From assembly GCA_035549195.1 (NCBI GenBank), contig DASZRK010000017.1, positions 384,177-448,176 of the forward strand: DNA of 64,000 nucleotides, read 5' to 3'. The position numbers and the translations under genes are program-made. The DNA comes from a bacterium. Its GTDB lineage: Bacteria; Oederibacteriota; Muellerivitia; Muellerivitales; Muellerivitaceae. The first letter of the stretch is position 1. Each line of letters starts with the position of its first letter. This document shows, in pieces, positions 1 to 64,000 of this stretch. The notes beneath the pieces were generated by a model that saw only the letters and a list, made by a program, of their open reading frames with translations, ran no database searches and was not told the DNA's origin.

Positions 1-3000
1 CAGAGTTTTGCCGTGACGGTCCAGCAAACGGGGGTTTCGTTCAATGTGAACCTGGCCTGGGACGCGACTGTGAACAGCTCGAATGCGAACGTGACGAATT
101 ACAATCTAAGTCGTGGAGTCACTTCGACGAGCTTAAGTTTTTTTGCATCTGTTACATTTAGTTTTGCCCCCCCATATACCGATCCGCAGCCCCTTTCTTC
201 AGCGGGAACGACCCTGTTTTATGGAATTCGGGGTTTGGATCCGGGAGGACTAGGAACTCGGCCGGTTACCGGAATACAACTCCCTCCCAACCCGCCGACG
301 GGTGTCAGTGCGGCCCCAACCACCAGCAACGTCACCGTGAACTGGACGGCCCGTCCGGCCTCGGAGAAGGTCTCCCAATACACCATCTATCGGATAAATC
401 TGGCGGGACCCACGACGACCGTGGCGGGCTCCGCCGTTTCCACGGTGAACTCCTTCACCGATTCGACCGGCCTGTCCCGGGGAGCGACTTACGTTTATTA
501 CGTGACGGCCACCAACCCGGGCGGCGGACCGGGCATTCCCGGCGGGGAAAGCCTGGCGTCGTCCTCCGTGACCACCGGGCTGACGCCCTTGATCCCCGCC
601 GGTTTGATCGTCTCCGGGATCAATACCTCCAACGACATCACCGTTTCCTGGTCGTCGGTGACCGTGACTTCCCAAGATCCCAACGCGACCGGCGTCAATC
701 TTTTGGTCAACACGACCAATAGTTCGTCCACGGCGGTCACGACCTCCTTGGCGGCTTCGGCGGTCTCCCAGGTTTTGGCCGGCCAATCGGCGGGCACGAC
801 CTTCTTCTATTGGCTCCAGACCGTGAACCCCTTCGGGTCCGGTGCCTTGACCAGTCCGGTCAGCCAACTGACCTACCCGGGCGCTCCCGTCCTTGGTCCG
901 GTGGCCTTGGCGAATGATGGCGTTTCCCGGATCTTCAATTGGACGGCCCCGGTCCCTTCGGGTAGTGTGACCCAATACCTGATCTACCGGGAGATCCAAG
1001 GGTCGGGGAACTGGATCAACACCGCCTCCTTCCCGGCCAGCGTGGCGGGTAGTCCGGTGACCACGACCACGGCCATTAACCCGGGCCAGGTCTATGATTA
1101 CAAGATCGTGGCAGTGAACCCCACGGGCCTCGGACCCGAGTCGAATATCCGCTCCTTCAGTTCCTTGCCCTCGGCCCCGGTCAGCGTGACGGCGGCTTCG
1201 GGCATCGGTCCCTCGGCCTTGCAGGTGGACCTCGCCTGGGCCGATCCCAATGAGAGTGCCCAAGGGGTGACGGCTTATACGGTCTATCGGTCCTCCAGCA
1301 ACGCCTCCACCCTCTCCTATACGGCTTTGGTCACCGTAGGGTCCGGGACCTTCAATTATTCCGACACGACGGTGTCCGATGTGACGCCTTACTATTACTT
1401 GATCACGGCGACCAATAACGTGCCCCAGGAATCCTTCAAGTCCACGGTCAATGCCGTGGCGGTGACGGCCTATTACCAACCCAACACGCCGACTTCGCCG
1501 GCGGCGGTCCCCGCCACAGGTTCCGTGACCCTGACCTGGACGTCGGCCGTTGCCACCAGCTACCCCGTGTCCTTCTATGCCGTTTCCCGGACCGCCAACG
1601 GAGTCACCCTGGCGCCGGTGACGGTGATCAGTCCGGCCACGGTCCTCAATGACAGTGGCCTGACCAATGGGGTGACTTACGCTTATACGATCAGGACGGG
1701 GGACAACCAAGGCCACTTGAGCACGGCCACTGCGCCGGTGACAGCCGTTCCCCTGGCTCCGCCCGGAGCCCCCTTGAGTCCCAACGTGTCCGTTGGTGAC
1801 ACCCAGTTGCTCTTGACCTGGAATCCGGCTGTTCCTGGGACGCTTCCCATCGGTGCTTACAATGTTTATTCCGTTACCGCAGGGCCTACCACCACTTATG
1901 TGGGGTCCGCCCCCGCAACCCTTAATAGTTATTTGGTTACGGGACTTTCCAACTCAGGGGTTACCTATACCTACGTCGTGAACGCGGTGGACAATTCGGG
2001 TGTCACGACAGGGGTCCATGCCGGTAATTTCACGGCATTCTCGGGAAGTCCCGTCTCGGCCAAGGTCAATCCCGCCAGCGATTTGACCCTCCAGGCGGGG
2101 AACGCGCAGGTGATCTTGAATTGGACCGATTCGGTGACCATTTCAGGTGCCGCCACGGTCGTTTCTTATAGGATCGTTCAGTCCGTTGGCGGGGCCGCCT
2201 TCACGACCATCGGCACACAACTGCCGTCCGGTGCGACCGAGTCGGTCACTGAAACATCCCTGTCCAACGGGGTCAGCTACGCTTATTTCATCGTCGCGGC
2301 CTCGGCGACCACGGTGTCGGCCAACAGCGCCACGGTCTTCGGCGTCCCCTCGGCGCCGCCGACGGCCCCGGCCACCTTCCTGGCCGTCGATGGAGTGGAC
2401 CAGGTTTCCTTGTCCTGGAGTCCCTCGCCCCCCCAAGGGTCCATCACGATCTCGAACTATGTCCTGACCCAGGCGGTCTTGCCGGGGGCTCCTTCGGCCT
2501 TGGCGACCTTGGGAGGCGCTGTCACGACCTATGTGGACAATAACGCATCCAATGATGGCCAGACTGTGGTTTACGCAGTTGCGGCGGTCAATTCGAACGG
2601 CACCTTGGGGGCTTTCTCCGCTCCAGTGACCGGGTTTCCCTATCAAGCTTTTGCGCCGACCGTCACCAGCCACTTGTCCTCCTCCACGGGGGTGACCTTG
2701 AACTTTACCCCGGCCGGGTCGCCTTCTTGGCCTGTGACCGAATTCGATATCCTGAGGACCGTTGTTTCCACGGGGGTTTCCGTCCTGATCCCCGGCGGGC
2801 CGAGCTCACCGGTGACCGATACGACGGGCGTCTTGGGGACCCTTTATAGCTACAGTGTGGTCGCTCTGGACAATAAGGGGCACATGAGCGCCGCCTCCAA
2901 CGCCGTTACCGACGGTATTTCCAACCCGCCTACCGCTCCCGCGACCATCCTGCTCACGGCCGGGAGCCAGGAAGTTCTCATCGACTGGCCCGCTTCCGCT

Positions 3001-3858
3001 GCTGTGTCGGGCTCTCTGCCTGTTTCCTTCTATATTTTGGACGTCAACGGGACCCCCGTGACCCTTCCTGCCAGCCAGACCTGGTACCTGGACAGTGGGC
3101 TTACGGACCCTGCGACGGTTACGGTTTCCCTGACCGTCATAGATGCCAGCGGTCAGCAGTCGGCGGACCACAGCGTGACCCTAGCCGGGGCCGCCCCGGC
3201 CATCACAGACCCGAACAACATCAATCCGCCTACGGGGCTTACCGCCACGGCTCTGAGCACTTCCAGCGTTCAATTGGTCTGGACGGTCCCCAACGACCTG
3301 GGTTATCCGGTGACCGCCTTCAATGTCTACCGGTCAAGTTCCTTCCAGACCACCTTTGGATCGCCCCTGACCCAGGTGGCCAGTCCGCCCAGCGCCTTGG
3401 GTCCCGTGACGACTTTCACCGACGCAGGGTTGGCTCCCAGTACCACTTATTACTATGTGGTCCAGGCCGTTTATGGATTGGTCCCGTCGGGAGCGGCCTC
3501 AAATACGAGCCCCAATTCGAACCATGCTTCCGTCACGACCAATACGCCCGCGTCGGGACCACCGCCGGTCACGACCGGTGTGATGGCTTTCGACGCCAAC
3601 GTGGTCCTGCCCAACACCGGGCAGACCTTGGGGATCTACTTCATCGCGCCCCAAAGCGGGCCCGTCGAATTGGATATCTATAATATTTCGGGCAATCCCA
3701 TCCGGGCCCTTTACGCCACCGCCGTGGCCGGGACCCAGGTGAACCTAAGCTGGGATGCGAAGGACCGTAATGGCCGAACGGTCGCTTCCGGCCTTTACCT
3801 CATCGAGATCAAGGGCCCGGGCATCCACCTGGTACGGAAAGTGATCGTGGTGAAGTGA
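1..3858 (+). CDS. giant secreted surface protein of tandem fibronectin type III-like repeats with C-terminal T9SS/FlgD-Ig-type sorting domain; 5' end lies outside the window
   Basis: The 1281-aa ORF stays open to position 1 in frame. It shows repeated about 90-aa units with W/Y-x-A/T...Y-x-Y-x-V-x-A-x-N Fn3 signatures and is Thr/Ser/Val-rich. The C-terminal 60 aa (IYNISGNPIRALY...WDAKDRNGRTVASGLYLIEIKG...KVIVVK) match the type-A CTD / FlgD-Ig pattern. Confidence 0.7.
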   Translation, partial: QSFAVTVQQTGVSFNVNLAWDATVNSSNANVTNYNLSRGVTSTSLSFFASVTFSFAPPYTDPQPLSSAGTTLFYGIRGLDPGGLGTRPVTGIQLPPNPPTGVSAAPTTSNVTVNWTARPASEKVSQYTIYRINLAGPTTTVAGSAVSTVNSFTDSTGLSRGATYVYYVTATNPGGGPGIPGGESLASSSVTTGLTPLIPAGLIVSGINTSNDITVSWSSVTVTSQDPNATGVNLLVNTTNSSSTAVTTSLAASAVSQVLAGQSAGTTFFYWLQTVNPFGSGALTSPVSQLTYPGAPVLGPVALANDGVSRIFNWTAPVPSGSVTQYLIYREIQGSGNWINTASFPASVAGSPVTTTTAINPGQVYDYKIVAVNPTGLGPESNIRSFSSLPSAPVSVTAASGIGPSALQVDLAWADPNESAQGVTAYTVYRSSSNASTLSYTALVTVGSGTFNYSDTTVSDVTPYYYLITATNNVPQESFKSTVNAVAVTAYYQPNTPTSPAAVPATGSVTLTWTSAVATSYPVSFYAVSRTANGVTLAPVTVISPATVLNDSGLTNGVTYAYTIRTGDNQGHLSTATAPVTAVPLAPPGAPLSPNVSVGDTQLLLTWNPAVPGTLPIGAYNVYSVTAGPTTTYVGSAPATLNSYLVTGLSNSGVTYTYVVNAVDNSGVTTGVHAGNFTAFSGSPVSAKVNPASDLTLQAGNAQVILNWTDSVTISGAATVVSYRIVQSVGGAAFTTIGTQLPSGATESVTETSLSNGVSYAYFIVAASATTVSANSATVFGVPSAPPTAPATFLAVDGVDQVSLSWSPSPPQGSITISNYVLTQAVLPGAPSALATLGGAVTTYVDNNASNDGQTVVYAVAAVNSNGTLGAFSAPVTGFPYQAFAPTVTSHLSSSTGVTLNFTPAGSPSWPVTEFDILRTVVSTGVSVLIPGGPSSPVTDTTGVLGTLYSYSVVALDNKGHMSAASNAVTDGISNPPTAPATILLTAGSQEVLIDWPASAAVSGSLPVSFYILDVNGTPVTLPASQTWYLDSGLTDPATVTVSLTVIDASGQQSADHSVTLAGAAPAITDPNNINPPTGLTATALSTSSVQLVWTVPNDLGYPVTAFNVYRSSSFQTTFGSPLTQVASPPSALGPVTTFTDAGLAPSTTYYYVVQAVYGLVPSGAASNTSPNSNHASVTTNTPASGPPPVTTGVMAFDANVVLPNTGQTLGIYFIAPQSGPVELDIYNISGNPIRALYATAVAGTQVNLSWDAKDRNGRTVASGLYLIEIKGPGIHLVRKVIVVK

Positions 3859-3995
3859 TGATGAACCACCAAACCGCCAAGCCGCCCAGAAAGGCGATAT
3901 CCCGGGGGATGGATACGATCTCGGATCTAGTCGCGAACCAAGGAACGGTTGTTTTGTCCGTAAAACGGAAAGATCCTTTCTTCCGGTCCTTTTTC

Positions 3996-5807
3996 ATGAA
4001 AGTCGTTCTTGGCGCCTTGGCGTCTTGGCGGTTGATGGTCGTTGATGCCTCCGCCCAGAACCTCACCAGCGGTGCCGATTTCCTCAAGATCGATTCGGGC
4101 GCCCGCAGCCAGGGCATGGGCGGCGCCTTCACGGCGGTCGCCGACGACGTGAACGCGCTCACGTGGAACCCGGCCGGCCTCGCCCTCCTTAAACAGCCCG
4201 AAGTGGGCTATCTGCGCATGATCTACCTGAGCGATATCGGTTATAACTTCGGCGGGGTGGCTTTCCCCATCCAGGCAGGGGAGGACACACTCGGGTTGGG
4301 CGCGGCGGTGGTGAACCTGGGTTCCCCCAGCTTCGACAGTACCCTGGGCCTGGCGCCGGCGGTCTCGGCGGGGGACAACGCCTTCTCCCTTTCCGCGGCC
4401 TACCGGGTGAAGGACATCGTGGCCTTCGGGTTGACGGGCAAGTTCATCCTACGCAACCTGGCGGGTTACAACGCCAGCGCTTTCGGGGGCGACCTGGGCG
4501 TCCTGATCTCCCCCATTCCGCAGTTCCATATCGGCCTCGGGCTCTTCAACCTAGGGACCCAGGTTGAGTTCATTTCCGAGGGGGACCCTTTGCCCCTGAC
4601 CGGCCGTTTGGGGCTCGCCTACAAGGTGTTGGACGAGCCGCACGACAGCTTGACCCTGGCATTGGACAATGCCTATGACCTGAACGCCTCGATGTATTCG
4701 GGTTCGGTGGGAGCCGAGTTCTGGCTGGAGAACGTCTTCGCCCTTCGGGCGGGCTACACCGGCGATGCCTACCAACAGCATTGGACGGCGGGGACCGGCT
4801 TCAGCCTGGACGCCTTCGAGGTGGATTACGCCTACGCGCCCTTGGGCACGGTGGGGGACAGCCATCGCATTTCCCTCATCGTGCGGTTCGGGGCCGAGGG
4901 GGAAAATCTGGCGGCGCCCTTGGGGGCCACGGCCAATCCCGGGGACGGGTTCGTTTCCCTCAACTGGAAACCCGCCCCGTCCGGATCGATCTCGGGTTAC
5001 AACATCTATGTGCGCAAGCCCAACGCCACGAGCCTGGTGCGCGTGACCAAGCATCCCTTGAGCGCCTCGGAGACCAGTGTCAAATTGAGCCATTTGACCA
5101 ATGGCGAGACCTATACCTTCGGGCTGGCTTCGGTGAGCCCGGCGGGCCGCGAAAGCGGCCTGATCACCCTTTCGGCCATGCCCCAGGCCTCCATCGCCTC
5201 GGCGGTCTCCACCCCGCCCCCGGCCGCCCAGCTTTCGGCCCCAACGGGCCTGAAGGCGGTCCTGAACCAGGTCGGGTTCGATATTGTCTGGGATCGGGCC
5301 CTCTCCAGCGAAGTGGCCGGCTACAACCTTTACTTGGCCGATGCCGAGGGCAAACCCGGGAAAAAGTTGAACCCCCAATTGATGGTGGACCCCAAGGTCA
5401 CCCTCAAGAAGGTCGACCCGGACAAGACTTATCGGTTCCTGGTGACCGCCCAGGGCCAAGCGGGCAACGAGAGCCCCGCGGCTCTCCTGACCGTCCTCTA
5501 TAGCGACCTGAAGAAAGCCGCCGAAGCGGCCGCCTTGCCGCCACCGCCCGCCCATCTGATCCTGGAGCCGAAGGGCGCCAAGGTGCGCTTGAGCTGGGAT
5601 AGTGCCGGGGAAGGGATCCAATACAAGGTCTATGTCTCGAAGGACGGGAAGGAATTCCGCCTCCTGACCTCCAAACCCGTGGAAGGCACCTCCGCCACCT
5701 TGGGGCCCTTGAAAGCGGGGCAGTCCTATACCTTTGGGGTGACCTCCGTGAAGGCCGACGGCAAGGAAAGCGAAAAGGTCGTCCAGACCAATTCCGCCAA
5801 TCCCTGA
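3996..5807 (+). CDS. outer-membrane beta-barrel protein, PorV/PorQ/FadL-like N-terminal domain fused to two C-terminal fibronectin-III-like domains
   Basis: The ORF track gives 3855..5807. The likely start is the internal ATG at 3996, giving signal peptide MKVVLGALASWRLMVVDASA|Q with an AxA cleavage site. The N-terminal motif GARSQGMGGAFTAVADDVNALTWNPAGLA and alternating beta-strand pattern fit PorV/FadL-type barrels. The C-terminus carries Fn3-like units (GYNIYVRKPN...GETYTFGLASVSPAG; YKVYVSKDGKEF...SYTFGVTSV). Confidence 0.55.
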   Translation: MKVVLGALASWRLMVVDASAQNLTSGADFLKIDSGARSQGMGGAFTAVADDVNALTWNPAGLALLKQPEVGYLRMIYLSDIGYNFGGVAFPIQAGEDTLGLGAAVVNLGSPSFDSTLGLAPAVSAGDNAFSLSAAYRVKDIVAFGLTGKFILRNLAGYNASAFGGDLGVLISPIPQFHIGLGLFNLGTQVEFISEGDPLPLTGRLGLAYKVLDEPHDSLTLALDNAYDLNASMYSGSVGAEFWLENVFALRAGYTGDAYQQHWTAGTGFSLDAFEVDYAYAPLGTVGDSHRISLIVRFGAEGENLAAPLGATANPGDGFVSLNWKPAPSGSISGYNIYVRKPNATSLVRVTKHPLSASETSVKLSHLTNGETYTFGLASVSPAGRESGLITLSAMPQASIASAVSTPPPAAQLSAPTGLKAVLNQVGFDIVWDRALSSEVAGYNLYLADAEGKPGKKLNPQLMVDPKVTLKKVDPDKTYRFLVTAQGQAGNESPAALLTVLYSDLKKAAEAAALPPPPAHLILEPKGAKVRLSWDSAGEGIQYKVYVSKDGKEFRLLTSKPVEGTSATLGPLKAGQSYTFGVTSVKADGKESEKVVQTNSANP

Positions 5808-21390: not shown

Positions 21391-21936
21391 ATGAAGGTTG
21401 TTCCTAGGCCCGGGATGAAGGGCGCCGAAAAGATCTATGTGGTGGAAGTGGTCAAGGGCCTTTGGCTCACGCTGGGCCATGTCCTGCACAATCTCCTCCA
21501 ACCAAAGGACATGCCGGTGGTGTCCTTCCCGGAGGAAAAGAAGGACCTGCCCCCGACCACCCGGGGCCGGCACCGGCTCATGAAGCGCGAGGACGGCGAA
21601 CCCCGTTGCACCGCCTGCATGCTTTGCGCCACCGCCTGTCCGGCCGAGTGCATCCATATCCTGGCGGAAGAGTCGCCGGACCCGAACATCGAGAAGTTCC
21701 CGGCGAAGTTCGACATCGACATGCTGCGCTGTGTCTATTGCGGCTATTGTGTGGAGGCCTGCCCCCTGGACGCCATCCGCATGGACATCCCCGAGGTGAC
21801 CGTGGCGGGCTACACCCGCGACAGCCTGGTGTACCACAAGGAATTCCTGATGGATCACGATAATAAGGACGTGGTGGCGGACTATAATCCGCCCCGTCCC
21901 GTCCAGTGGACCCACGGGCCGCACGCGAGGCCCTGA
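21391..21936 (+). CDS. nuoI: NADH-quinone oxidoreductase subunit I (2x[4Fe-4S])
   Basis: CTACMLCATACP and CVYCGYCVEACP ferredoxin motifs are present. Confidence 0.9.
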   Translation: MKVVPRPGMKGAEKIYVVEVVKGLWLTLGHVLHNLLQPKDMPVVSFPEEKKDLPPTTRGRHRLMKREDGEPRCTACMLCATACPAECIHILAEESPDPNIEKFPAKFDIDMLRCVYCGYCVEACPLDAIRMDIPEVTVAGYTRDSLVYHKEFLMDHDNKDVVADYNPPRPVQWTHGPHARP

Positions 21937-29176: not shown

Positions 29177-29638
29177 ATGGGTCAAGGGCGCGGGAAGACC
29201 GCCGGATTCACGCTGGTCGAATTGATGATCGTCGTGGCCGTCATCGGCATCCTGGCCGCCATCGCGATCCCCCGGTTCGGGGAAATGGTCGAAAAGTCCC
29301 GGGAAGGCCAGACCAAGGGGAACCTCAACAGCATCCATTCGGCCATGATGATCTATTACGGGGATCAAAAAGGCATCTGGCCGACCACCTTGAACACCTA
29401 TGTGTCCTTCGCCTTCAGCCAATACCTCGATAACGTGAACCCGGTGAAGGTCACGGGGCATTTCGTCGCCAATGCTATCAACCCGGCGGGAGCGAATGTG
29501 GCCATGACGGCCAACAGCGGTACGCCTATTGGGAGCAGCACAGGATGGCTTTATGACAGCACCAATGGGGGGGTCTACGTGAACAGCACGGTGAAGGATT
29601 CCCGGTATCTCCCTTATTCCTTCTACGGGTTCGAGTAA
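29177..29638 (+). CDS. type IV pilin / pseudopilin (prepilin-type N-terminal methylation domain)
   Basis: The GFTLVELMIVVAVIGILAAIAIP class-III signal is preceded by a short basic leader. Confidence 0.85.
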   Translation: MGQGRGKTAGFTLVELMIVVAVIGILAAIAIPRFGEMVEKSREGQTKGNLNSIHSAMMIYYGDQKGIWPTTLNTYVSFAFSQYLDNVNPVKVTGHFVANAINPAGANVAMTANSGTPIGSSTGWLYDSTNGGVYVNSTVKDSRYLPYSFYGFE

Positions 29639-29646
29639 GGTCCCTC

Positions 29647-31182
29647 CTAGTTGAACAGGACCGAAAGGGTGCCCTGCACCCCGGCTTGGGTGGTGAAATC
29701 ATTGGGGTTCGGGCTGTCGTAGGTCGAGGGCTGACCCATCCAGAAGGCCAAGTCCCACCGGAAGGCTCCCTGCTTGAAGCTCGCTCCCATGGTCAGGGTG
29801 GTGGCCACGATCCGGGTGCCGGGTGGCACCTTGTAATGCACCTTGACGACGTCCTCTCCGCCCCCGTTGTAGTCATCCTCGAAGTTCAATCCTCCCCGCA
29901 GAGCCCAGTGCTCATTCAGCCATTTTTCCCCGCCAAGGCCGAAGGTATAGGCCAGATAGTCCAGGGAATAGCCCGTCCCAGAAACGGGTGCGTAGGAGCC
30001 GGACCGGGTGTCCAAGGCCGCCTGGAACCCCAAGGTGAATTCATCGGCGTTCTCCAGGCCGGCTCCCAGTCCGAATTGGACGTCGGATTCGTCGGTCGTT
30101 TGGACCTCCGCCCCGGCCGGGTCGGTCTGTTTGGCCCGGGCGCTCCCCACTAGGCTGTAAGCTCCCATGTTCAGGGTCAGCTTTTGACGGAGGGACCCGG
30201 GCAGTGGGAACTTTCCTTTGATGCCGCCGAAGACCGCCAGGCTATCGTCCGTCTCCAGGTGATATTCGGCGATGGAAGGGATCAAAAGGCCGCTGCCGGA
30301 ATCCAATTGGTAATCCAACTCGGTGTGGGTCACGCGGGTCAGCAAACAGGCCTGGAAGGAACCCGGGACCATCAGATAAAGATCGGGCCCGAAGTTCAAG
30401 TAAGTGGGGACGCTGATGGTTACGGTGAGGTCCACGGGGGTCCCGCCCGAATTCCCCGTGATCGTTTCCTTCTGTTGGGATGGGGCGATCTGGGTCCCGA
30501 AGAGGCCGCCGATCCGGAGCCGGGAGGGCTCCTTGGACCGGTCCAGAGGGAGGTCCAGCAGCAATCCCGAAGTGGAAACAAGTAGGCTGCTGTCGGCTTG
30601 GCCGTCGGGACCAGGGCCGTAAAGGTTCGTCAGCGATTTTTGGACCTGGGCGGCATCGATCCCGGTGCCCAAGACCAAGGGATCCAGGTCCGCGGCCATG
30701 CGGCCGGTTCCGCGGACCCGGTCCGCAGAGGTGTCATAAGCGCCCGAATCGGTTTGATGGGTGGTGTGGAGCAGGTCGCCGCTCAATTGGACCGCCCGGT
30801 CCTTGGCCGGGAAAAGAAGGAGGCCCTGGTAGGTGAAGGGAGAGGCGCTGTTGGAAAGGAGATTGGAAGCGGGGAAGTTGGAGCCGATATGGGAGAAGGT
30901 ACCGTAAGTCTCGACCTGGGCCGCGGCGTCGGATGCGGGAGTGTCCAAGGAAAGGGCCCCCGAGGCGTCGAACCGGCTTTGAGAAGGAAGCAGGGCCAGG
31001 CCGGCGGGATTCCCCAAATTGAAGGGAGAAAGGTCCGCTGTCTCGTCGTCCAGCACCAGGTTCAAACCGCCCACCGCATTGACCCGGGTCTCCGAGGCAA
31101 AGGTGCGGGGCGGGGAGGCCCCGGCCAGTAGGAAAGTGAGCGCAAAGGAAAGATAGGAAAATTTCCGCATAGGCAGGACCAT
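29647..31182 (-). CDS. outer-membrane beta-barrel protein, unknown family
   Basis: The start is likely ATG at 31182 (MVLPMRKFSYLSFALTFLLAGASPPRTFA signal peptide), preceded by GGAGG with 8-nt spacing. The protein shows an alternating amphipathic strand pattern. The C-terminal ...GTLSVLFN has the usual OMP terminal aromatic. Confidence 0.6.
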   Translation of the reverse strand: MVLPMRKFSYLSFALTFLLAGASPPRTFASETRVNAVGGLNLVLDDETADLSPFNLGNPAGLALLPSQSRFDASGALSLDTPASDAAAQVETYGTFSHIGSNFPASNLLSNSASPFTYQGLLLFPAKDRAVQLSGDLLHTTHQTDSGAYDTSADRVRGTGRMAADLDPLVLGTGIDAAQVQKSLTNLYGPGPDGQADSSLLVSTSGLLLDLPLDRSKEPSRLRIGGLFGTQIAPSQQKETITGNSGGTPVDLTVTISVPTYLNFGPDLYLMVPGSFQACLLTRVTHTELDYQLDSGSGLLIPSIAEYHLETDDSLAVFGGIKGKFPLPGSLRQKLTLNMGAYSLVGSARAKQTDPAGAEVQTTDESDVQFGLGAGLENADEFTLGFQAALDTRSGSYAPVSGTGYSLDYLAYTFGLGGEKWLNEHWALRGGLNFEDDYNGGGEDVVKVHYKVPPGTRIVATTLTMGASFKQGAFRWDLAFWMGQPSTYDSPNPNDFTTQAGVQGTLSVLFN

Positions 31183-31578
31183 TATAGGAGCCTCCCAAGC
31201 CGACCCTATTCCAAAAGGATGCCGGGACGGTCGATCGGCCGCTTCTAGAAAAGCATCCGGTCCTCCCCGGGATTTTGACCGGCCGGACACCCAAAATCGT
31301 TCACCCGACTTTTTCGTAGTGGCATTTCACGTTTTAACCCCCCACCGATAGTGGGGTCGGTCCTGGAAAATTCCGGCGTTGTCATCCTCCGTTTTTTGCG
31401 CCGAGCAATATGATTTTTAGCATTGAACCGGTGCAAAGGGGTTGCGATGGTGCGGACGGAAACGGTATCATGCTCGGCCTGAACCGCTCCTTTTGTTGTC
31501 TTCCTAAATAGTCCCCGGCTTTTCGGCCCAATGGCGGTTCGTTTCGATTCATAAATCTTAGAAGGAGGATGTTTTTCA

Positions 31579-39626: not shown

Positions 39627-40970
39627 TTAGCGCGGGGGATTGGTCTTGGCGATGGGGAGCGTCTTGATGGGCTTCCTGTCCTTGAAGTAGACCACGTAGT
39701 ACTGTCCCACCGGCATGTCGTATCGCATCTTGTTCTTCCCATCCCACTCCACCCAGGCGTTCTGTTCGTTCGTCACCTTATGGTCATAAATGACCTCGAC
39801 CGCCTTCAGTTTGGCGTCCACCACTTCCAACTGGTAATGACCTGGCCCGGTGTCGAAGGTCACCAGGAAAGCGGCCGGGAAGGTGCTGAAGACCAGGGTC
39901 TCGGTCCTTTCCGCCGGCGGGAGGCCGCGCGGCATGCCTTGCGGACGGGCTTGGGGCGCTTGAACGGGGACCTGGGTCGGGACGGCCTGGACCCGGGGCA
40001 TGGGGGTCGGAACCGCGGCCCGCGGCAGGGAGACGGGTGGGGCATAGACCGGGACGGCCGGCAGGGGGATCGGCGTATCGGTCGGACGCGGAGCGGGCAT
40101 GACCATGGGGGGCAAGGTGGGCCAGGCTTGGGCGCGGGTCGGAAGGGCCCAAGGGGTGGCCGTCGGCACGAGCCGGGGCCAGGGGGTGAAGGTGGGCCAA
40201 CGGGTCCAGGTGCGGGTCGGGGTCCAAGGAATGAAAGGCGTGGGGGAGCGGGTGGCGGTGGGGGTCGGGGTCGTGGATCGGGTAGGCGTGGGCGTCAGAT
40301 AAGGGGTCGGGGAATAGGTCGGCAGGAAATGGGGAGGTGCGGCCACTTGGCGCCAATAGAGGACCCCGCAACCTTGGGAGGGGCCCGAGCCGTTCGCTGA
40401 GGTGTCGTAAGAGAGATAGGGGAGCAGGTCGCCGGTCTGGGCGCTTCGGATCTGGGCGGCGGTATAGGTATTGGCGGAGATCGGCACCCCGGTGCGGGAA
40501 AAGGGATTCGAGGCCGGGTCGTATTGGAACAGCATCCAACTGTGCCCGCTCTCGTCGGATAGGGGTGCAGCCCCGGCTCCGCAGGAACCGCCTCCGTTCG
40601 GGTCCCAGTAGAGCCGGATCTGGGATTTGACCGGATCGGAGCTGTTCATGACGAAAGGCGGCCGCCCCTCGCAGTCGACCTCCAGTTCCCACGAGGTATA
40701 GACCCGGGTGGGGTTGTTGTTCTCGGTGCGGAGGGTCAGGCAGATGAGGGGCCCCTGGATCAGGTCCAGGTCCATGGGGAGGCAGAGCTTGCCGGGGCCG
40801 CAACCCGACCGCCCGTCGCAGAATTCGCGTTGGCCCAGGTAGGCCCCATTGACCCAGACCTGGGTGATGTCGTCCCCGGCCACGCAGACCCGTGCGCCCG
40901 TGGGACGGCACTGGCCCCAGGCCAGGGAAGCCGGAAGGAAAAGGAACAGGAGGATCAGGGACCTTTTCAT
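39627..40970 (-). CDS. secreted protein with Cys-rich N-terminal domain, long Pro/Thr/Trp-rich linker and C-terminal T9SS/FlgD-Ig-type sorting domain
   Basis: Signal peptide MKRSLILLFLFLPASLAWG|Q, followed by a domain with 10 Cys. The low-complexity TPTPTRSTTPTPTATRSPTP...PQARPQG region follows. The C-terminal EVVDAKLKAVEVIYDHKV...WDGKNKMRYDMPVGQYYVVYFKD resembles the C-terminal domain of ORF1. Confidence 0.6.
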   Translation of the reverse strand: MKRSLILLFLFLPASLAWGQCRPTGARVCVAGDDITQVWVNGAYLGQREFCDGRSGCGPGKLCLPMDLDLIQGPLICLTLRTENNNPTRVYTSWELEVDCEGRPPFVMNSSDPVKSQIRLYWDPNGGGSCGAGAAPLSDESGHSWMLFQYDPASNPFSRTGVPISANTYTAAQIRSAQTGDLLPYLSYDTSANGSGPSQGCGVLYWRQVAAPPHFLPTYSPTPYLTPTPTRSTTPTPTATRSPTPFIPWTPTRTWTRWPTFTPWPRLVPTATPWALPTRAQAWPTLPPMVMPAPRPTDTPIPLPAVPVYAPPVSLPRAAVPTPMPRVQAVPTQVPVQAPQARPQGMPRGLPPAERTETLVFSTFPAAFLVTFDTGPGHYQLEVVDAKLKAVEVIYDHKVTNEQNAWVEWDGKNKMRYDMPVGQYYVVYFKDRKPIKTLPIAKTNPPR

Positions 40971-57335: not shown

Positions 57336-58223
57336 TTATCCTACCCCGGAATGGGCATCCCCAAAAGGAACCAGGTCGCGGCCGCAATCCTTGCAGGAAC
57401 CTTCCAGGGACCGGTACGCCACCTCGCAACGGGGGCAATAGCTCCGGTCCTGGGGGCCCGTGGGGGCCATCGGCGCCCATAAGCCGACGGTTTCAAGGCC
57501 GCATTCCTGAAGCCACTGAACGATCGTCCGTTCCTCCCCTTCCCGGTCCTTTTCCAGAAGGAGGGGCACCTCCGCCACGCCCGCCAGGGCCGGTGGATAG
57601 CGAAGTTCCAGCACCCAACGCCGGGCCCAACCCTCGAAGTCCCGGTCCGCCAAAAGCAGTTTCCCCGCCACCAGTGGATGGAAATGATCGAAGAGCGGGT
57701 CGGCCAGGAGGTCCATGGCCCGGGAGGAGAGCCAGGGTGAGACGGCGCAAAGAAGGGTCTTTCGGATGCGCGCCCATTTCTTTTCCGGATAGAGCTTTCC
57801 GAACCCACGCCAGAAGACGACGACCAGGGTCAGGTGAACGAAGAGGAAGGCGAAGGCCCAGAGGCCCCAGGCCAGCCAGAAACCTTTCCGCAGGACGAAC
57901 AGCAGGAAGGCGGTGGCGCCCAGCCCGATCAGGATGCGGGACCAGGACTTAAGGGTCCGGTCGAAGGCCAGGAAATCCTGGTAGCGGTCCTTGGCCTCGG
58001 GGAGGGATAGCCGGGAGGGACCGTTGGGAACAGGCGAGGACGGTGGGAAACGATAGCAGAAGCCCGCCGGCCAAGGGTTGCGCGAGCGCAGGCCCGGTCC
58101 CCGGTGAAGGGTGAAGGCCTTGCCCCAACCCAGCAGGATCCAGCCCGCCTCCCCGGCATAGACCAGGCACTCGGCCAGATAGATGGCCGACGCGAGCACG
58201 ACGAAGATCTGGAAATGGCTCAT
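57336..58223 (-). CDS. hypothetical membrane protein with C-terminal zinc-ribbon (CPRC...CKDC)
   Basis: About 4 TM helices are followed by a cytoplasmic region ending ...CPRCEVAYRSLEGSCKDCGRDLVPF. Confidence 0.5.
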   Translation of the reverse strand: MSHFQIFVVLASAIYLAECLVYAGEAGWILLGWGKAFTLHRGPGLRSRNPWPAGFCYRFPPSSPVPNGPSRLSLPEAKDRYQDFLAFDRTLKSWSRILIGLGATAFLLFVLRKGFWLAWGLWAFAFLFVHLTLVVVFWRGFGKLYPEKKWARIRKTLLCAVSPWLSSRAMDLLADPLFDHFHPLVAGKLLLADRDFEGWARRWVLELRYPPALAGVAEVPLLLEKDREGEERTIVQWLQECGLETVGLWAPMAPTGPQDRSYCPRCEVAYRSLEGSCKDCGRDLVPFGDAHSGVG

Positions 58224-58258
58224 GGCCGGCCTGGAGGAAAAATTCTAAGGATCCGGAC

Positions 58259-59131
58259 CTAGACCTGGGGCGGCGGGGGCGGCGGGTTTTGGTCGTTATC
58301 CTTGCCCTTGCCGCCGCCGAAAATCTTCTTGAAGAAGGCCCCGACCGCGGCCAAGGCCACGATCAGCAGCTTGCCCAGCTTGGCGACCAGTAGGGCGAAG
58401 AAGCCGCCCAGCTTGCCCAGGAGCCCCGTCTTGGCGGCGACCGCCCCGGCGGCGCCCACGACCAGCGCGGCCAGCCCGAACTCGGCCACCTTGTCCCCGG
58501 TCTTCCACTCGGAGTATTTGTTGCCGCTGGTGTAATCGAAGCCATCCAGCGTATGGTTCAAGGGACCCAGCATGGCCTGCCAATCCTCCCCATGGGGCAC
58601 CACGATGACCCGCATGACGCCCTTGCGGCCCAGGATGCGGGTGTTGAAGTTGACGAATTGCTGGCCCTTTTCCTCGATCACTTCGGCCCATTCCAGGCGC
58701 TGGGTGTCCGGGTTGTAATGGGGCTCTTCGGCCCATTTGACCAGGTGCATCTCCTCCCAACCCTTTTTCTTGCGTTCCTCATTGGCGTCCTTCTCGTTCT
58801 CGACCATCTGCTTCCACATGGCGTCCGGGTCCAATTTCTCGTTGGCGGCATCCTTGATGTAGCCCGTGTCCTCGAACGTGAAGAGCGCCATGAAGCCGTT
58901 CTCATCCTTGGTGTAGAGGACACCCAGCTCGTCGCCGGAATAGAGGTTGTGGGTCTTTTCCATGAATTCCTTCATGTCGTCCTTGGGGAAGAACTCGTAG
59001 CCTTCCGGAACCTTGATATCGGCCATGTCGCCGATCCGGCCGGTGGCGGGACCTTGCAGGGGATGGAGTTCGGCGCGCAGGGGGGCGGAAAGGAGGAAGC
59101 AAAGGGATAGGGCGGCCAGGAAGGATTTCAT
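58259..59131 (-). CDS. membrane-anchored protein, DUF2167-like (signal peptide, soluble domain, C-terminal TM helices)
   Basis: Start is ATG at 59131 after AAAGG. Signal peptide MKSFLAALSLCFLLSAPLRA. The C-terminal hydrophobic helices GLAALVVGAAGAVAAK...LLIVALAAVGAFF are followed by a poly-Pro tail. The family call is tentative. Confidence 0.45.
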   Translation of the reverse strand: MKSFLAALSLCFLLSAPLRAELHPLQGPATGRIGDMADIKVPEGYEFFPKDDMKEFMEKTHNLYSGDELGVLYTKDENGFMALFTFEDTGYIKDAANEKLDPDAMWKQMVENEKDANEERKKKGWEEMHLVKWAEEPHYNPDTQRLEWAEVIEEKGQQFVNFNTRILGRKGVMRVIVVPHGEDWQAMLGPLNHTLDGFDYTSGNKYSEWKTGDKVAEFGLAALVVGAAGAVAAKTGLLGKLGGFFALLVAKLGKLLIVALAAVGAFFKKIFGGGKGKDNDQNPPPPPPQV

Positions 59132-59210
59132 GGAATACCTTTCGAATGGGATGGAGCCAGTATAGGAAGGGAGCTTTTCGGGCTCCAAGGAAATAAGCCG
59201 CCCGGGAAGG

Positions 59211-60959
59211 TTAAATCTGGATGATCTTGCGCTTGTGGTCCAGGAAATCCCGGAGCACATATTGGGTCAGCTTCTCGGGGGCGGGGAAGATGAGCCGGCC
59301 CTGGTTGATCTTATGCATGGCCTCCAGGAAATCCCCCTCGCCGAAATAGCCCATATCCACCTCGTTGCCCATCATGAAGGTGTTGATGGTGATGCCCTCG
59401 TCGGTCACGGCCCGGACTTCCCGCAAGGTCCTTTGATAGGTCCGTTCGTTGGGCGGATAGGTGAGGTAAAGATGGGAGCCCTCGTAAAAAGCGGTGGGGG
59501 CGCCGTCGGTGATCAAGAGGATGCTCTTGTTCCTCGTTTCAGCGTTGGCCAAGAGCACCCGGGCTAGTTCCAGGCCCTTCTGCAAGTTGGTGAAATGCTG
59601 GGGGATGGAATCCCGGTCCCGTTGGGTGAGTCCTTTGGAGAAATCGACCCGCATGTTGACCGCGCCGCCCATGATGGAAATGGGCTTGGGGGCGAGCTCG
59701 GGGATGGCCCCCACGGGGATCTGTTTGGCGAAGGTGGAGAAGCACACGAAGTAGAGCTTGTCCTCGGGATATTCGGTGTGGATGAGGGAATCCAGCGCCA
59801 GGGCCAGCTTCTTGGTGTTGTAGAAACGCCCATAGCGGCTCATGGAGCCCGACTGGTCGATCAGCATGACGATGGCCGAGGCCGCGGCGCCCTTGGTCTG
59901 GTGGACCTGGAAATCCCGGCTGTCGATCCTGATGCGGCCGTCCTTCATCCTCTCCGGTGTGCCCATCTGGCGGATGGCGGAATTGAGCAGGCTCCCGGAC
60001 AGGTCCAGCGAGGTCAGGGAATCGCCGAACTCATAGGGGCGGGTGGGGGTCATCTCCACGTTGCCGTCGCCGGTGTAGGTGGCGTGGTGGCGGCCCATCC
60101 CGTCGGTGAAGAGGCGGGAGAAAACCTCCCTTAGGGTCTTCTCGCCGATCTTACGGGCGGCCCCGGGCGTGATCTTATAAATGTCGTTGTCCTCGTCGTA
60201 GTCCACGTCGCCGGTGGCCTGGATGGCTTCGTTGAACTGCTTCTTGAGCTCGTCCCGTTTCGCCTGGAGCGCCTGGGCCGCTTCCTCGCCCAGGATGTCC
60301 TTGAGGGTCTCCGCTTCCATATTGAAGAGATCGCCGTGCTCCAGGGCGTCCTTCAACTGCTGTTCCAACCGGTCCAGGGTCTCCAGGCGTTCCTTCAGGC
60401 GGCGGGACTCCTCGGGGTTCGGGTCCTGTTGGCCGGTGAAGGTGTGTTTTTGGTAAAGGTCCTCCAGCTCGGCCATCTTTTGCCAGAGCAGGTTCAGTTC
60501 TTGGAGCAGGTCCCGGGCGATCTCGGCGTTCTTGTTCTTGAGGCGGGACAACTGCCAGTCCAGGTTGTAGAGCTGGGAAGGGTTTCGGCTGTCCAGGGCC
60601 TCGTCCAGGCGTTTGGCGATGTCCTTATCCTTGAGGCGCGCGACCTGTTGTTCCAGCTCGGCGGATTTGCGGCGGATCTCCTGCTCGAGCCGGTTGAGGA
60701 CGTTGTCCAACCGGTATTTCTCGAGGATCTCTTTCTTCAGGCGCTCGATCTCCTTCAGGTAGCCCTCCACCAGGTCGGTGAGGCCGCTGGTCTTGAGGAA
60801 CTGGTTGTAGGGGATGCCTTTCTCCTGCAGGTGGCGCAGGGCCTCGTCGAAGGTGACGTGGTAGCGCATCATGAGCTCTTTCACCGCGTTCACCAGGTCC
60901 TGCATGGTGAAGGGCGGTTCCTCGGGCTCGTGCCATTCGGAATAGTCGTGGGTTATCAA
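59211..60959 (-). CDS. von Willebrand factor type A (vWA) domain protein with N-terminal coiled-coil region
   Basis: TTG start after AAGGG. About 380 aa rich in heptad-like EK/LQ repeats precede a C-terminal vWA domain carrying the MIDAS motif DQSGSMS ... T ... LITDG. Confidence 0.75.
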   Translation of the reverse strand: MITHDYSEWHEPEEPPFTMQDLVNAVKELMMRYHVTFDEALRHLQEKGIPYNQFLKTSGLTDLVEGYLKEIERLKKEILEKYRLDNVLNRLEQEIRRKSAELEQQVARLKDKDIAKRLDEALDSRNPSQLYNLDWQLSRLKNKNAEIARDLLQELNLLWQKMAELEDLYQKHTFTGQQDPNPEESRRLKERLETLDRLEQQLKDALEHGDLFNMEAETLKDILGEEAAQALQAKRDELKKQFNEAIQATGDVDYDEDNDIYKITPGAARKIGEKTLREVFSRLFTDGMGRHHATYTGDGNVEMTPTRPYEFGDSLTSLDLSGSLLNSAIRQMGTPERMKDGRIRIDSRDFQVHQTKGAAASAIVMLIDQSGSMSRYGRFYNTKKLALALDSLIHTEYPEDKLYFVCFSTFAKQIPVGAIPELAPKPISIMGGAVNMRVDFSKGLTQRDRDSIPQHFTNLQKGLELARVLLANAETRNKSILLITDGAPTAFYEGSHLYLTYPPNERTYQRTLREVRAVTDEGITINTFMMGNEVDMGYFGEGDFLEAMHKINQGRLIFPAPEKLTQYVLRDFLDHKRKIIQI

Positions 60960-60963
60960 GTTA

Positions 60964-61104
60964 AGGCCCTTTCACCACAGAGGGCACAGAGATCGCAGAG
61001 GAAACCATTTTGAGTGAAAGAATTTGATCGTATCGTCCGTTTAGAAAAGGAGTTTGTGAACAAAAGAAGGCCTTTCTCTGTGCTCTCCGTGCTCTCTGTG
61101 GTTA
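60964..61104. repeat. inverted pair of anchor plus triple 9-mer repeats flanking a 70-bp spacer between the ChlI-like ATPase and vWA genes
   Basis: At 60971-61001, TTCACCAC is followed by CCACAGAGG GCACAGAGA TCGCAGAGG. The reverse complement of 61071-61102 is CCACAGAGA GCACGGAGA GCACAGAGA. The two arms match at 22 of 27 positions and the right arm abuts the ATPase stop codon. Confidence 0.7.
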
Positions 61105-62529
61105 GACAGGTTTCTTCTTCGGGGCGGCGGAAGTCTGGTAGTCCATCATCTCCCCCACCTTGTTGCGGGTGAGCTTGCCTGACAAATGCAGGCCTTCCAG
61201 CACGAATTCCACGCAGGAAGCCTGATAGGTCTCGCTCTTGCCCTCGGCCAGGTGCTGGACCGGCTCCCAGATCTGCGGCATCTGGGAGATCATCTTCTTG
61301 TAGTCGCCCGCGGGGGTCAGGTCCGAAACCCGGATGTGCTTCTCACCCGACATGTCGGGGATGGTCAGCTCCAGATGGTCCTTCTCCATGTGCTCCTTGA
61401 AGACGGTCAGGATGGCCTTATCCATGATCTTCTCGAAGACCTGCCGCTCGGTGACGGTCTCTTCCCGGAACGGGTCCAGGTCGATCTTGCCCGCGGAGGA
61501 GGTATAGAGATAGTTCAGGTCCGAGATGCGGGGGACGGCCTCGGCCTCGCCCAAGACCACCGCCCGGCGGCGGGAATTGGCCACCATGGTCTCGAAGTTG
61601 GCGATGGAAAGACGGGCCGAAACCCCCGATTTCTGGTTCACATAGGGGCTCTTACGCGCTTCCATGGTGATCTGCTCGATGATCTCTTCCATAAAGGCGG
61701 GGACCACCAGCTTCGCGTCCCCATCCTTCGGCATGCGGGCTTCCTGATGGATGACCTGAAGGCCCAGTTCCCGGGTCAAGGGGTAGTGGGTCCTGATCTC
61801 GGCCCCGATGCGGTCCTTCAACTGGGTGATGATCTTGCCCGCGCGGGTGTATTCCTCGGGGTTCGCGGTGAAAAGGAGCAACAGGTCCAGGTCGAAGCGG
61901 ATGGGATAACCCCGCACCTGGATGTCGCGTTCTTCCAGGATATTGAAGAGGGCGACCTGCACCAGGTATTCCAGGTCGGGTAGTTCGTTCACGGCGAAGA
62001 TGCCACGGTTCATGCGGGGGATGAGGCCGAAATGGATGGCTTCCTCGCTCGCCAGCGGGTTCCCGGCGGCCACCTTGGCCGGGTCCAGGTCACCGATCAA
62101 GTCGGCGATCTTGGTGCCGGGCGAAAGGCGCTCCCCGTAGCGGGCCTCACGGCCGATCCAGGCGATCTCCAGGTTCTCCCCGTGCTCGGCCAGCTTCTTA
62201 CGGCAGGAGGCGCAGATGGGGTGGTAAGGGTGGTCGTGGATCTCGCATCCCTTCACGACCGGGATCTCCTCGTCCAGGAAGTTCACCAGTGAGCGCATGA
62301 GGCGGCTCTTGGCCTGTCCCTTTTCCCCCAAAAGTACGATGTCGTGGTGGGAAAGGACGGCGTTGATGAGCTGGGGAACGACGGTCTCCTCGAAGCCGTG
62401 GATGCCGGGGAAGAGGGGTTCGCCCTTCTTCAGCTTGGCCAGGAGGTTCGCCTCGATCTCTTCCTTGACCGTGCGGTCGGGGTAGCCGGAGGCGCGGAGT
62501 TCCTTCAAATTAATGGGCTTGGAGGGCAT
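61102..62529 (-). CDS. AAA+ ATPase of the Mg-chelatase ChlI/BchI-like family
   Basis: Walker A is LLGEKGQAKS. A Cys-containing insertion VVKGCEIHDHPYHPICASCRKK mirrors the ChlI insertion. GLIPRMNRGIFAVNELPDL is Walker B and LFTANPEE...LKDRIG is sensor II, both aligning with ChlI blocks. Confidence 0.7.
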   Translation of the reverse strand: MPSKPINLKELRASGYPDRTVKEEIEANLLAKLKKGEPLFPGIHGFEETVVPQLINAVLSHHDIVLLGEKGQAKSRLMRSLVNFLDEEIPVVKGCEIHDHPYHPICASCRKKLAEHGENLEIAWIGREARYGERLSPGTKIADLIGDLDPAKVAAGNPLASEEAIHFGLIPRMNRGIFAVNELPDLEYLVQVALFNILEERDIQVRGYPIRFDLDLLLLFTANPEEYTRAGKIITQLKDRIGAEIRTHYPLTRELGLQVIHQEARMPKDGDAKLVVPAFMEEIIEQITMEARKSPYVNQKSGVSARLSIANFETMVANSRRRAVVLGEAEAVPRISDLNYLYTSSAGKIDLDPFREETVTERQVFEKIMDKAILTVFKEHMEKDHLELTIPDMSGEKHIRVSDLTPAGDYKKMISQMPQIWEPVQHLAEGKSETYQASCVEFVLEGLHLSGKLTRNKVGEMMDYQTSAAPKKKPV

Positions 62530-62597
62530 GGTCTTTCCTTGTTTTGGGAACTAAGCCCTAATCTTACGGTCCCCAAAAGAAAGGAAGCAAGGGCCGC

Positions 62598-64000
62598 TTA
62601 GGGAGCGACGCCCACGGCCCGGTAGACGCGCCAGATACCCGTCAAGGAAGGATGGGCGTTGGAGGGGCAATCGGTGAAATGGCGGAGCCGCAAGCCCCCG
62701 GGCGCCAAAAGATCCACTCCCTGGAGGGCCCGGGTTTCAAGAAGCAGGAGGTTCCCGGATGGCAACGCTTTCGCGGTCCCTTGACCCTGGAGGTAGTAAT
62801 GGTGGAAAGCCCCGCTGAAATAGGAGTAGCCGATGGGGATCCGGTCCCGGCCTTTGGAGACCAACCGCCCGAGGGCGGTCTCGATGCGATGGTAGGGGTC
62901 GTCCGGTACCCCTTCACGGGACCCCAGGCCCAGTTCGGGATGGGAGCGCTCGAGCTGGTCCCAGCCCCAGGTCTCGAAAAGAGTGAAGGAAGGGATCATC
63001 CGGACATCCGGCCGGCGTCCTTCCACGAGCTGGAGGTAGTAAAGCGGGAAATAATCCTCGTCGCCCTCGGCGAAGAAAAGGGAGGCCTTGGGAAGGGAAC
63101 GCAGGAGGTTCGTCCCGTAGTCGTAACGCAAGGTCTGCTTCGTTTCATTCATGAGCCGATAGGCCGTGGCGCCGTTGAAAAGGACCAACAAAGCGAAGAA
63201 CCAAAGGATGTGGGGTTTGGTCGGGCCTTCCTTCAAGCGATCCAGGATCCCAAGTCCCATGGCCGCCAATAAACAGACCAAGGCGTCCGCCGGTAAGAGG
63301 TAATTGTCCATCAGCCAGGCGTGAGGGACGTTCAGTGGGACCCAAAGGGCGACCGTGAAGACGGCCAGCAATGGGACCAAGGGCAAGAACACCAGCACCA
63401 GGATCTTTCGCGCACCCGCTCTCCCGGCCCCAAGGATCGCTAGGACCCCGAAGGCAAGGGCGAGCGGGCCCGGATTGTTCCAGAAATGGACAGGTATATA
63501 AGAGACCTGTTCCTTCCAGATCCTGGTCCAGACCGACCCCAAGACCGCCCACGAGCCGGTGCCGCGCGCGATATCCCAAAGAGAACCCAAGAGGCCGGGT
63601 TCGCGGCCGAAGGTGTAGCCCCGAAAAATGCATTTAAGGAACCGGTCCCAATGGTCGGGATGCCCCAGGTCGGGCAAGGGATCCAAGTGCGCGCGCAATG
63701 GGAGCAGGAGCAAAGGGGAAAGCCCTAGGAACAGGAAAGGCGGTCCGTACGGCGCCCATTCCTTGGGAAGGGCTGTCCTGTCGGCGGGGCCCAAGGGCCA
63801 AAAGAAGACCGCCAGCAGGGGCAGGAAGAGCACTTGGGTCTCCCAATGGTTCGCCAAACCCATGCCGGACAACAGGCAGGCGAGCAGGAACCCCTTGGGG
63901 CCCGGGACGGACAGGCGAACATAGAGGATCCCCAAGAGCAGGACCTCTTGGATCAAATAAATACCCCCTTTGGCGCCTAAGGCTTTTTCCCATTGGGTAT
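62598..64000 (-). CDS. polytopic membrane protein with soluble C-terminal domain (GT-C/DUF2723-like); N-terminus probably beyond window end
   Basis: The ORF has no in-frame stop between the TTG at 63956 and the window edge. Many TM helices are followed by a soluble domain of about 170 aa. Confidence 0.4.
   Translation of the reverse strand, partial: TQWEKALGAKGGIYLIQEVLLLGILYVRLSVPGPKGFLLACLLSGMGLANHWETQVLFLPLLAVFFWPLGPADRTALPKEWAPYGPPFLFLGLSPLLLLPLRAHLDPLPDLGHPDHWDRFLKCIFRGYTFGREPGLLGSLWDIARGTGSWAVLGSVWTRIWKEQVSYIPVHFWNNPGPLALAFGVLAILGAGRAGARKILVLVFLPLVPLLAVFTVALWVPLNVPHAWLMDNYLLPADALVCLLAAMGLGILDRLKEGPTKPHILWFFALLVLFNGATAYRLMNETKQTLRYDYGTNLLRSLPKASLFFAEGDEDYFPLYYLQLVEGRRPDVRMIPSFTLFETWGWDQLERSHPELGLGSREGVPDDPYHRIETALGRLVSKGRDRIPIGYSYFSGAFHHYYLQGQGTAKALPSGNLLLLETRALQGVDLLAPGGLRLRHFTDCPSNAHPSLTGIWRVYRAVGVAP

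Follow-up and report, generated by a model that had tools for sequence, protein, structure and literature searches.

From our analysis of a 64,000-nucleotide stretch of genomic DNA (contig DASZRK010000017.1 of assembly GCA_035549195.1; hereafter the window), we describe two adjacent genes of an uncultured soil bacterium of the candidate phylum FCPU426. The first, open reading frame 1 (ORF1), encodes a giant secreted protein of fibronectin type III (Fn3) repeats, and the second, ORF2, encodes a predicted outer-membrane barrel assigned to the PorV/PorQ family. The pair is a real, conserved and uncharacterised variant of the cognate-barrel theme known from the T9SS (type IX secretion system), in which a surface protein that keeps its C-terminal domain (CTD) is held by a partner barrel. 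We establish homology, fold and conserved gene pairing for ORF1 and ORF2, and we consider it reasonably likely that the two products are a cognate cargo-anchor pair, ORF2 serving as the dedicated carrier and permanent surface anchor of ORF1.

The two genes are adjacent in all 14 distinct orthologous FCPU426 loci, and the ORF2 orthologue is directly preceded at each orthologous locus by a gene for a large Fn3 protein with the same CTD. The pairing still holds at 38% identity. About 60 clusters with the complete ORF2 architecture (38-75% identity) were found, and the relatives, in a scan that took one genome from each species, fall in candidate division FCPU426, with some records labelled proteobacterium. 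Using hidden Markov models (HMMs) of the CTD, we also found seven non-orthologous loci in which the gene of a PorV-like barrel directly follows that of a large CTD protein: one from Ignavibacteriaceae (L019; upstream protein of 2375 aa), two of Elusimicrobia type in which the CTD protein and barrel genes overlap by 4 nt (L020 and L022), one from Elusimicrobia in which the upstream CTD passes TIGR04183 with 28.1 bits (L023), two TonB-receptor/glycosidase loci (L031 and L033; CTD proteins of 1047 and 1211 aa), and one in which the CTD lies at aa 741-811 of the reading frame upstream of the third barrel of the locus (L034). The pattern was absent in L021, L024, and L032. This order of genes mirrors the adjacent porU and porV genes of many Bacteroidota. 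The preliminary description of this DNA had proposed a cargo gene followed by a gene for a dedicated barrel, and the synteny of the 14 orthologous and seven further loci supports that idea. Our literature search returned no paper that connects T9SS or PorV with FCPU426 or Elusimicrobiota.

Two of the non-orthologous loci (L031:341-19014 and L033:1129-10020) resemble polysaccharide utilization loci, carrying a LacI regulator, a TonB-dependent receptor, the CTD protein and the PorV-like barrel; in L031, glycoside hydrolases with Por_Secre_tail come after the barrel. In both loci, the barrel seems to be a PorV paralogue reserved for polysaccharide use.

The giant Fn3-repeat protein and its C-terminal domain

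ORF1 is represented in the window by its 3' part (1..3858, + strand; 1285 codons), which is open in frame 1 from the first base, has no start in the window and ends with a TGA stop at 3856-3858, the 5' end of the gene lying beyond the window. Twelve tandem Fn3 domains (4..3504, + strand; aa 2-1168), with a period of about 97 aa and a mean pairwise identity of about 35%, score 57-80 bits each against an HMM that was built iteratively from the repeats of ORF1 itself, and the protein matches Pfam fn3 (PF00041) with 108 bits (E 2.8e-31; cut-off 25). The earlier view of ORF1 as a Fn3-repeat protein that leaves the window is borne out. The protein is rich in T, S, V, and A, has only 6% charged residues and contains no cysteine. 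Its orthologues begin with ordinary Sec signal peptides, and the longest of them reach 2000-2400 aa, the shorter gene calls being possibly incomplete. ORF1 is probably an adhesin or a surface-layer protein.

The protein closes with a CTD of 100 residues (aa 1186-1285; 3556..3855, + strand), a predicted 7-strand beta-sandwich of the type-A CTD/FlgD_ig superfamily that ends in RKVIVVK and is presumed to bind the ORF2 barrel. It can be aligned with classical type-A CTDs, the common parts being IYN..G..IR.L, WDGKD..G..VASG.Y, and the terminal K.V.VK, and an alignment of 15 orthologous CTDs has a mean column identity of 69%. A profile search of the PDB with this CTD placed FlgD first (E 6e-6), followed by the CTD of PorU (E 0.047) and PorZ (E 0.26). 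The AlphaFold2 model of the domain has 7 strands (predicted local distance difference test score, pLDDT, 90.1), and in a Foldseek search with this model the top two matches were the CTDs of PorZ (5m11; E 1.1e-4, root-mean-square deviation 2.9) and PorU (6za2), with FlgD behind them. PorZ and PorU are the two T9SS proteins with retained CTDs, bound to PorQ and PorV (PMC10202324). Judged from sequence comparison, the ORF1 CTD is homologous to T9SS type-A CTDs and to FlgD_ig, at scores just below the curated thresholds. A search of the indexed protein database with the CTD profile mostly returned short orthologue fragments.

A 447-aa secreted protein encoded elsewhere in the window (39627-40970, - strand) has a Cys-rich N-terminal domain, a long Pro/Thr-rich linker and a C-terminal beta-sandwich with WDGKN…G.YYV that is FlgD_ig/CTD-like; its match to the CTD HMM is not significant (E=5).

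The ORF2 barrel and its Fn3 tail

ORF2 as annotated by NCBI (3996..5807, + strand; 603 aa, 'PorV/PorQ family protein') has a signal peptide at aa 1-20 (…DASA|QN), followed at aa 21-300 (4056..4895, + strand) by a conserved N-terminal motif and a predicted 14-stranded outer-membrane barrel of PorV/FadL type. The N-terminus carries the motif GARSQGMGGAFTAVADDVNALTWNPAGLA, and the loops FDSTLGLAP and GTQVEFISEGDPLP are almost invariant across orthologues. The protein matches the PorV_fam model (NF033709) over all its positions (1-326 of 326) with 158.8 bits against a cut-off of 90. An AlphaFold2 model built with 33 orthologues (pLDDT 84.9) has a 14-strand barrel at aa 69-297, and when this model was compared with the PDB, the only barrels in the top 50 Foldseek matches were structures of Flavobacterium johnsoniae PorV (8gl6_F, E 7e-13, TM 0.65; 6h3i_F, TM 0.70). 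PorV was likewise the only barrel matched by the ORF2 sequence profile (E 1.1e-15). These results agree with the PorV/FadL-type barrel that had been suggested for the N-terminal half of ORF2. The PorV2 equivalog scores 60.3 bits (cut-off 325), below its threshold as are PorV and PorQ (see below), and by such family models ORF2 is best placed as a member of the PorV/PorQ family that is neither PorV nor PorQ proper.

Mature ORF2 and nearly all its orthologues have Gln directly after the signal cleavage site (…A|QQLTSGADFL; window 3996-4070), as have several ORF1 orthologues; this N-terminal Gln recalls the 'Q-rule' described for Bacteroidota. Another reading frame of the window (29647-31290, - strand) encodes a 547-aa secreted protein with an N-terminal motif, …DDETADLSPFNLGNPAGLALL, that recalls PorV/FadL, and scores 17.3 bits with BamG. 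It was considered as a second PorV-like barrel and rejected (PorV_fam 17.8 bits, hhalign probability 12%); its product is probably a distant outer-membrane barrel.

Where ORF2 begins is less simple than a 4-nt overlap with ORF1, as first described. Such an overlap exists for the maximal reading frame, which starts at GTG 3855 and gives a 650-aa form; an alternative ATG at 3858 overlaps the ORF1 stop by 1 nt only, and the identical NCBI protein starts at ATG 3996. The ORF2 frame stays open through the junction between the genes (3855..3995, + strand), which is translated as an N-terminal extension or else is an untranslated spacer. A maximal ORF2 that starts from ATGA or GTGA across the ORF1 stop is likewise present in 9 of 13 orthologues, and several have no other ATG. 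Although the frame is thus open in orthologues, the stretch is AT-rich (29-53% GC), its codon periodicity is weak and the bias of the gene in third-position GC is absent, and we do not take the overlap to demonstrate translational coupling. Between the genes, we found no site resembling a terminator or a promoter, and ORF1 and ORF2 are likely co-transcribed whichever start holds.

Behind the last barrel strand, ORF2 carries three Fn3 domains (4908..5792, + strand; aa 305-394, 415-501, and 515-599) in a tail of about 300 aa, where the preliminary description had two in the C-terminal 250 aa. The protein matches Pfam fn3 (PF00041) with 85.4 bits (cut-off 25), and the linker from the last strand to the first Fn3 domain is only about 10 residues long. 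The tail had been taken for Fn3 modules of the same kind as those of the presumed cargo. Against the HMM of the ORF1 repeats, however, the three domains give 36 bits, 18.5 bits and no hit, and their charged residues amount to 19% versus 6% in ORF1; on both grounds we rejected the idea that they are copies of the ORF1 domains.

Nor is the fusion of a barrel with Fn3 domains as unusual as had been thought. An exhaustive search with the barrel alone returned 14,167 cluster representatives at E<=1e-3, and among the best 150, which we inspected for length, about one-third combine an N-terminal barrel with a total length of 440 aa or more. Tails of 48 such long relatives were scanned and contained Fn3 (15), TPR (14), OmpA (7), CsgG-like (4), and BamD/YfiO-like (3) modules, most of which are well known as periplasmic. 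The frequency of tails among the closest barrels is indicative that the ORF2 fusion is a variant of a common theme rather than an oddity. In an even-stranded barrel both termini are periplasmic. From the even strand number, the periplasmic modules of relatives and a composition unlike that of ORF1, we place the Fn3 tail of ORF2 probably in the periplasm.

Tailed barrels were also seen in another setting (L034:7820-11644 and 21574-21644; GCA_035485275.1, DATHOE010000034.1). Two PorV-family barrels arranged in tandem, each with a beta-sandwich tail at its C-terminus, one of 701 aa (PorV_fam 126 bits, FlgD_ig-like tail) and one of 547 aa (89.4 bits, Fn3), lie there directly upstream of flgF-flgG-flgA-flgH-flgI-flgJ…flgK, and a third barrel gene with Fn3, directly preceded by a CTD-bearing reading frame, follows the flg cluster. 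These tailed barrels may be outer-membrane scaffolds of flagellar rings.

Proposed mechanism and alternative explanations

Taken as a cognate cargo-anchor pair, ORF1 would be exported by Sec as a giant fibril of Fn3 domains, and a SprA-type translocon, if encoded in the genome, would serve for its passage across the outer membrane. Extracellular loops of ORF2 would then bind the retained CTD of ORF1, and ORF2 would keep the Fn3 fibril at the cell surface, as PorV does with PorU and PorQ with PorZ, the CTDs of which are uncleaved. The three Fn3 domains of ORF2 would reach into the periplasm, serving there as a docking arm or a spacer. The literature supports parts of this reading: extracellular loops of PorV bind CTDs (PMC10994853), cognate PorV-like barrels have been proposed as retainers of uncleaved CTDs (PMC10202324), and BamG, a FadL-type barrel, holds a surface protein through its loops (PMC12578637).

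The closest parallels come from the T9SS attachment complex of Porphyromonas gingivalis, in whose PorU-PorV and PorZ-PorQ pairs a type-A CTD is likewise kept and held by a cognate 14-strand barrel of the PorV family, and the CTDs of PorZ and PorU are those that best match the ORF1 CTD model. In contrast, the partner in our pair is a Fn3 fibril of 2000-2400 aa instead of a sortase or a carrier of anionic lipopolysaccharide, and ORF2 has a tail of three Fn3 domains. The general T9SS carrier, F. johnsoniae PorV (6H3I, 8GL6), shares fold, N-terminal motif and family with ORF2, whereas ORF2 reaches a quarter of the equivalog cut-off, has apparently one partner and is extended at the C-terminus. An arrangement of SprB/SprF and PorP type had originally been suggested, in which a giant surface protein also has a gene for a dedicated anchoring barrel next to its own (PMC9143113). 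That system uses barrels of the PorP/SprF family and a type-B CTD signal, and neither ORF1 nor ORF2 matches the PorP_SprF or type-B CTD (TIGR04131) models at E<=0.1, so that we rejected membership in this class. The BamG-BamH unit of the beta-barrel assembly machinery of Bacteroidota resembles our pair in using a 14-strand FadL-type barrel as a loop platform for a surface protein (PMC12578637), but its partner is a lipoprotein held without a CTD, and a conserved extension at the N-terminus of BamG passes through the barrel wall.

Several observations weigh against the reading as a cognate pair. The CTD of ORF1 stays below the cut-offs of TIGR04183 (20.6 bits; cut-off 23), PF18962 (16.4 bits; cut-off 27), and FlgD_ig (PF13860; 25.5 bits; cut-off 27), with orthologous CTDs at 18.8-19.8 in the type-A CTD HMM test, and it lacks the NPFNP motif of its known counterparts, having FDANLL.P.TGQ in its N-terminal place. 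The Foldseek E-values are only about 1e-4 and the Ig-like fold is common, for which reason the structural matches of the CTD are supportive and not proof. The type-A-like character that had been claimed for it agrees with the alignment and the fold, is reflected in part of the sequence motifs and falls short of the TIGR04183 and PF18962 thresholds. ORF2 lies far below the equivalog cut-offs of both PorV (NF033710; 62.6 bits, cut-off 250) and PorQ (NF033711; 83.8 bits, cut-off 220). FCPU426 is listed among the NCBI candidate phyla, outside the Fibrobacteres-Chlorobi-Bacteroidetes (FCB) group; no T9SS core gene was found in the 64-kb window, and no further CTD protein in the window or in the flanks of the compared loci.

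An alternative is a module independent of T9SS, in which the giant protein would be exported or assembled through adjacent prepilin-type proteins (of a type II secretion, type IV pilus, or Tad-like system), with the periplasmic Fn3 arm docking there. Upstream of the giant Fn3 gene, orthologous loci carry a set of four conserved genes (L029:7339-15290, L030:6846-14855), encoding a protein of 286-317 aa with a hydrophobic N-terminus, a secreted protein of 571-714 aa, a giant prepilin-type protein of 1230-1350 aa (G|FSLVEL), and a prepilin-type protein of 380-430 aa (G|WTLIELM; TIGR02532 16.6 bits against 16.3). The two prepilin-type genes lie at most 4 kb upstream in 11 of the 12 assessable FCPU426 loci, and in the most divergent orthologue (L015) only 19 nt separate the pilin genes from the giant gene. 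In two Elusimicrobia-type loci (L020:4338-16083 and L022:4389-16094), a gene for a CTD-bearing protein of 1800 aa built from repeated FlgD_ig domains overlaps the gene of a 334-349-aa PorV-like barrel by 4 nt, and a Tad pilus set comes next (TadE-like, CpaB, secretin, and a TadA ATPase with a fused MinD/CpaE-like domain). A FadL-type barrel within a pilus system has a precedent in FilD (NF050080), with a weak match only. Against this, the pilin module occurs without the pair (Elusimicrobiales contig L035), the pair occurs without pilins (L011 and L019), and gaps of 170-500 nt are usual between the two; moreover, we know of no type II secretion or type IV pilus substrate with a CTD or a PorV-like barrel. 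We consider this explanation unlikely. A broader proposal, in which the CTD protein and PorV-like barrel would form an autonomous anchoring module without canonical T9SS outside the FCB group (in FCPU426 and Elusimicrobia), wired to type-IV-filament machinery (giant pilins, Tad) with the periplasmic Fn3 arm as the link, is put forward tentatively, as a rather unlikely idea.

Proteins homologous to the giant pilin, about 1050-1300 aa in length, are present in metagenome-assembled genomes of Elusimicrobia, Thermoanaerobaculia, and Planctomycetes and are apparently uncharacterised. A metagenome scan with the pilin alignment returned two weak loci only and was swamped by generic pilin N-termini.

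It is quite unlikely, in our estimate, that ORF2 serves a canonical T9SS as its general PorV shuttle, with ORF1 an ordinary cargo among many and their adjacency without special meaning. ORF2 is indeed of the PorV family, the ORF1 CTD is type-A-like, and adjacency of the porU-porV kind is common. However, a general shuttle would sit poorly with the wide distance of ORF2 from the PorV equivalog (62.6 bits against 250), with the lack of a further CTD protein in the window and flanks and with a tight, possibly coupled pairing that persists to 38% identity. The unusual conservation of the CTD (69% mean column identity) is as expected for one fixed partner.

The short linker between the last strand and the first Fn3 domain, together with an order of barrel followed by Ig-like domains that resembles intimin, would suit a different topology, in which the Fn3 domains of ORF2 are exposed on the cell exterior in the manner of an inverse autotransporter, the C-terminal passenger threading the barrel, and ORF1 and ORF2 are two parts of a surface layer. 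In intimin and invasin, though, the barrel has 12 strands and belongs to another family, with the passenger outside; ORF2, a 14-strand barrel of FadL/PorV type, has no match to an intimin-type barrel model in Pfam or NCBIfam. Its closest relatives carry periplasmic OmpA, TPR, and BamD-like modules at the position of the tail, the composition of which is unlike that of extracellular ORF1, and display of this kind is very unlikely. Finally, the weak Pfam matches of ORF2 to UPF0164 (32.3 bits; cut-off 21.4) and Toluene_X (17.2 bits) would fit a FadL/UPF0164-type channel for hydrophobic compounds with a function unrelated to ORF1, which is highly improbable given that the PorV_fam model and PorV structures match best and that different phyla have kept the pairing with CTD proteins.

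Genomic context and biological meaning

The genes downstream of ORF2 in the window have housekeeping roles (Pterin_4a, a VTT-domain protein, an ABC transporter, 6PGD, nuo genes, PFOR, and a fumarate-reductase-like flavoprotein). One gene (29177-29638, + strand; 153 aa, G|FTLVELMIVVAVIGILAAIAIP) is typical of a type IV pilin or pseudopilin, from which we conclude that the organism has type-IV-filament machinery. Toward the end of the window (57336-63998, - strand) lie genes for a partial multi-pass membrane protein, an AAA-like protein, a VWA-domain protein, DUF2167, and a small membrane protein.

As a cognate cargo-anchor pair, ORF1 and ORF2 would extend the principle of PorU-PorV and PorZ-PorQ to a giant structural protein, in a candidate phylum without a cultured member, and ORF1 probably makes up a dominant structure on the surface of these bacteria from soil and peat. 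The periplasmic tails (Fn3, TPR, OmpA) of about one-third of the closest PorV-family barrels suggest that many of these barrels tie surface proteins to the periplasm or the cell wall. A module wired to type-IV filaments, if true, would be an undescribed hybrid route of export and display and a hint at the origin of CTD/PorV recognition in T9SS. If complete genomes prove to be without SprA and PorKLMN, recognition of CTDs by PorV-like barrels would predate T9SS or exist apart from it, which bears on the evolution of the system.

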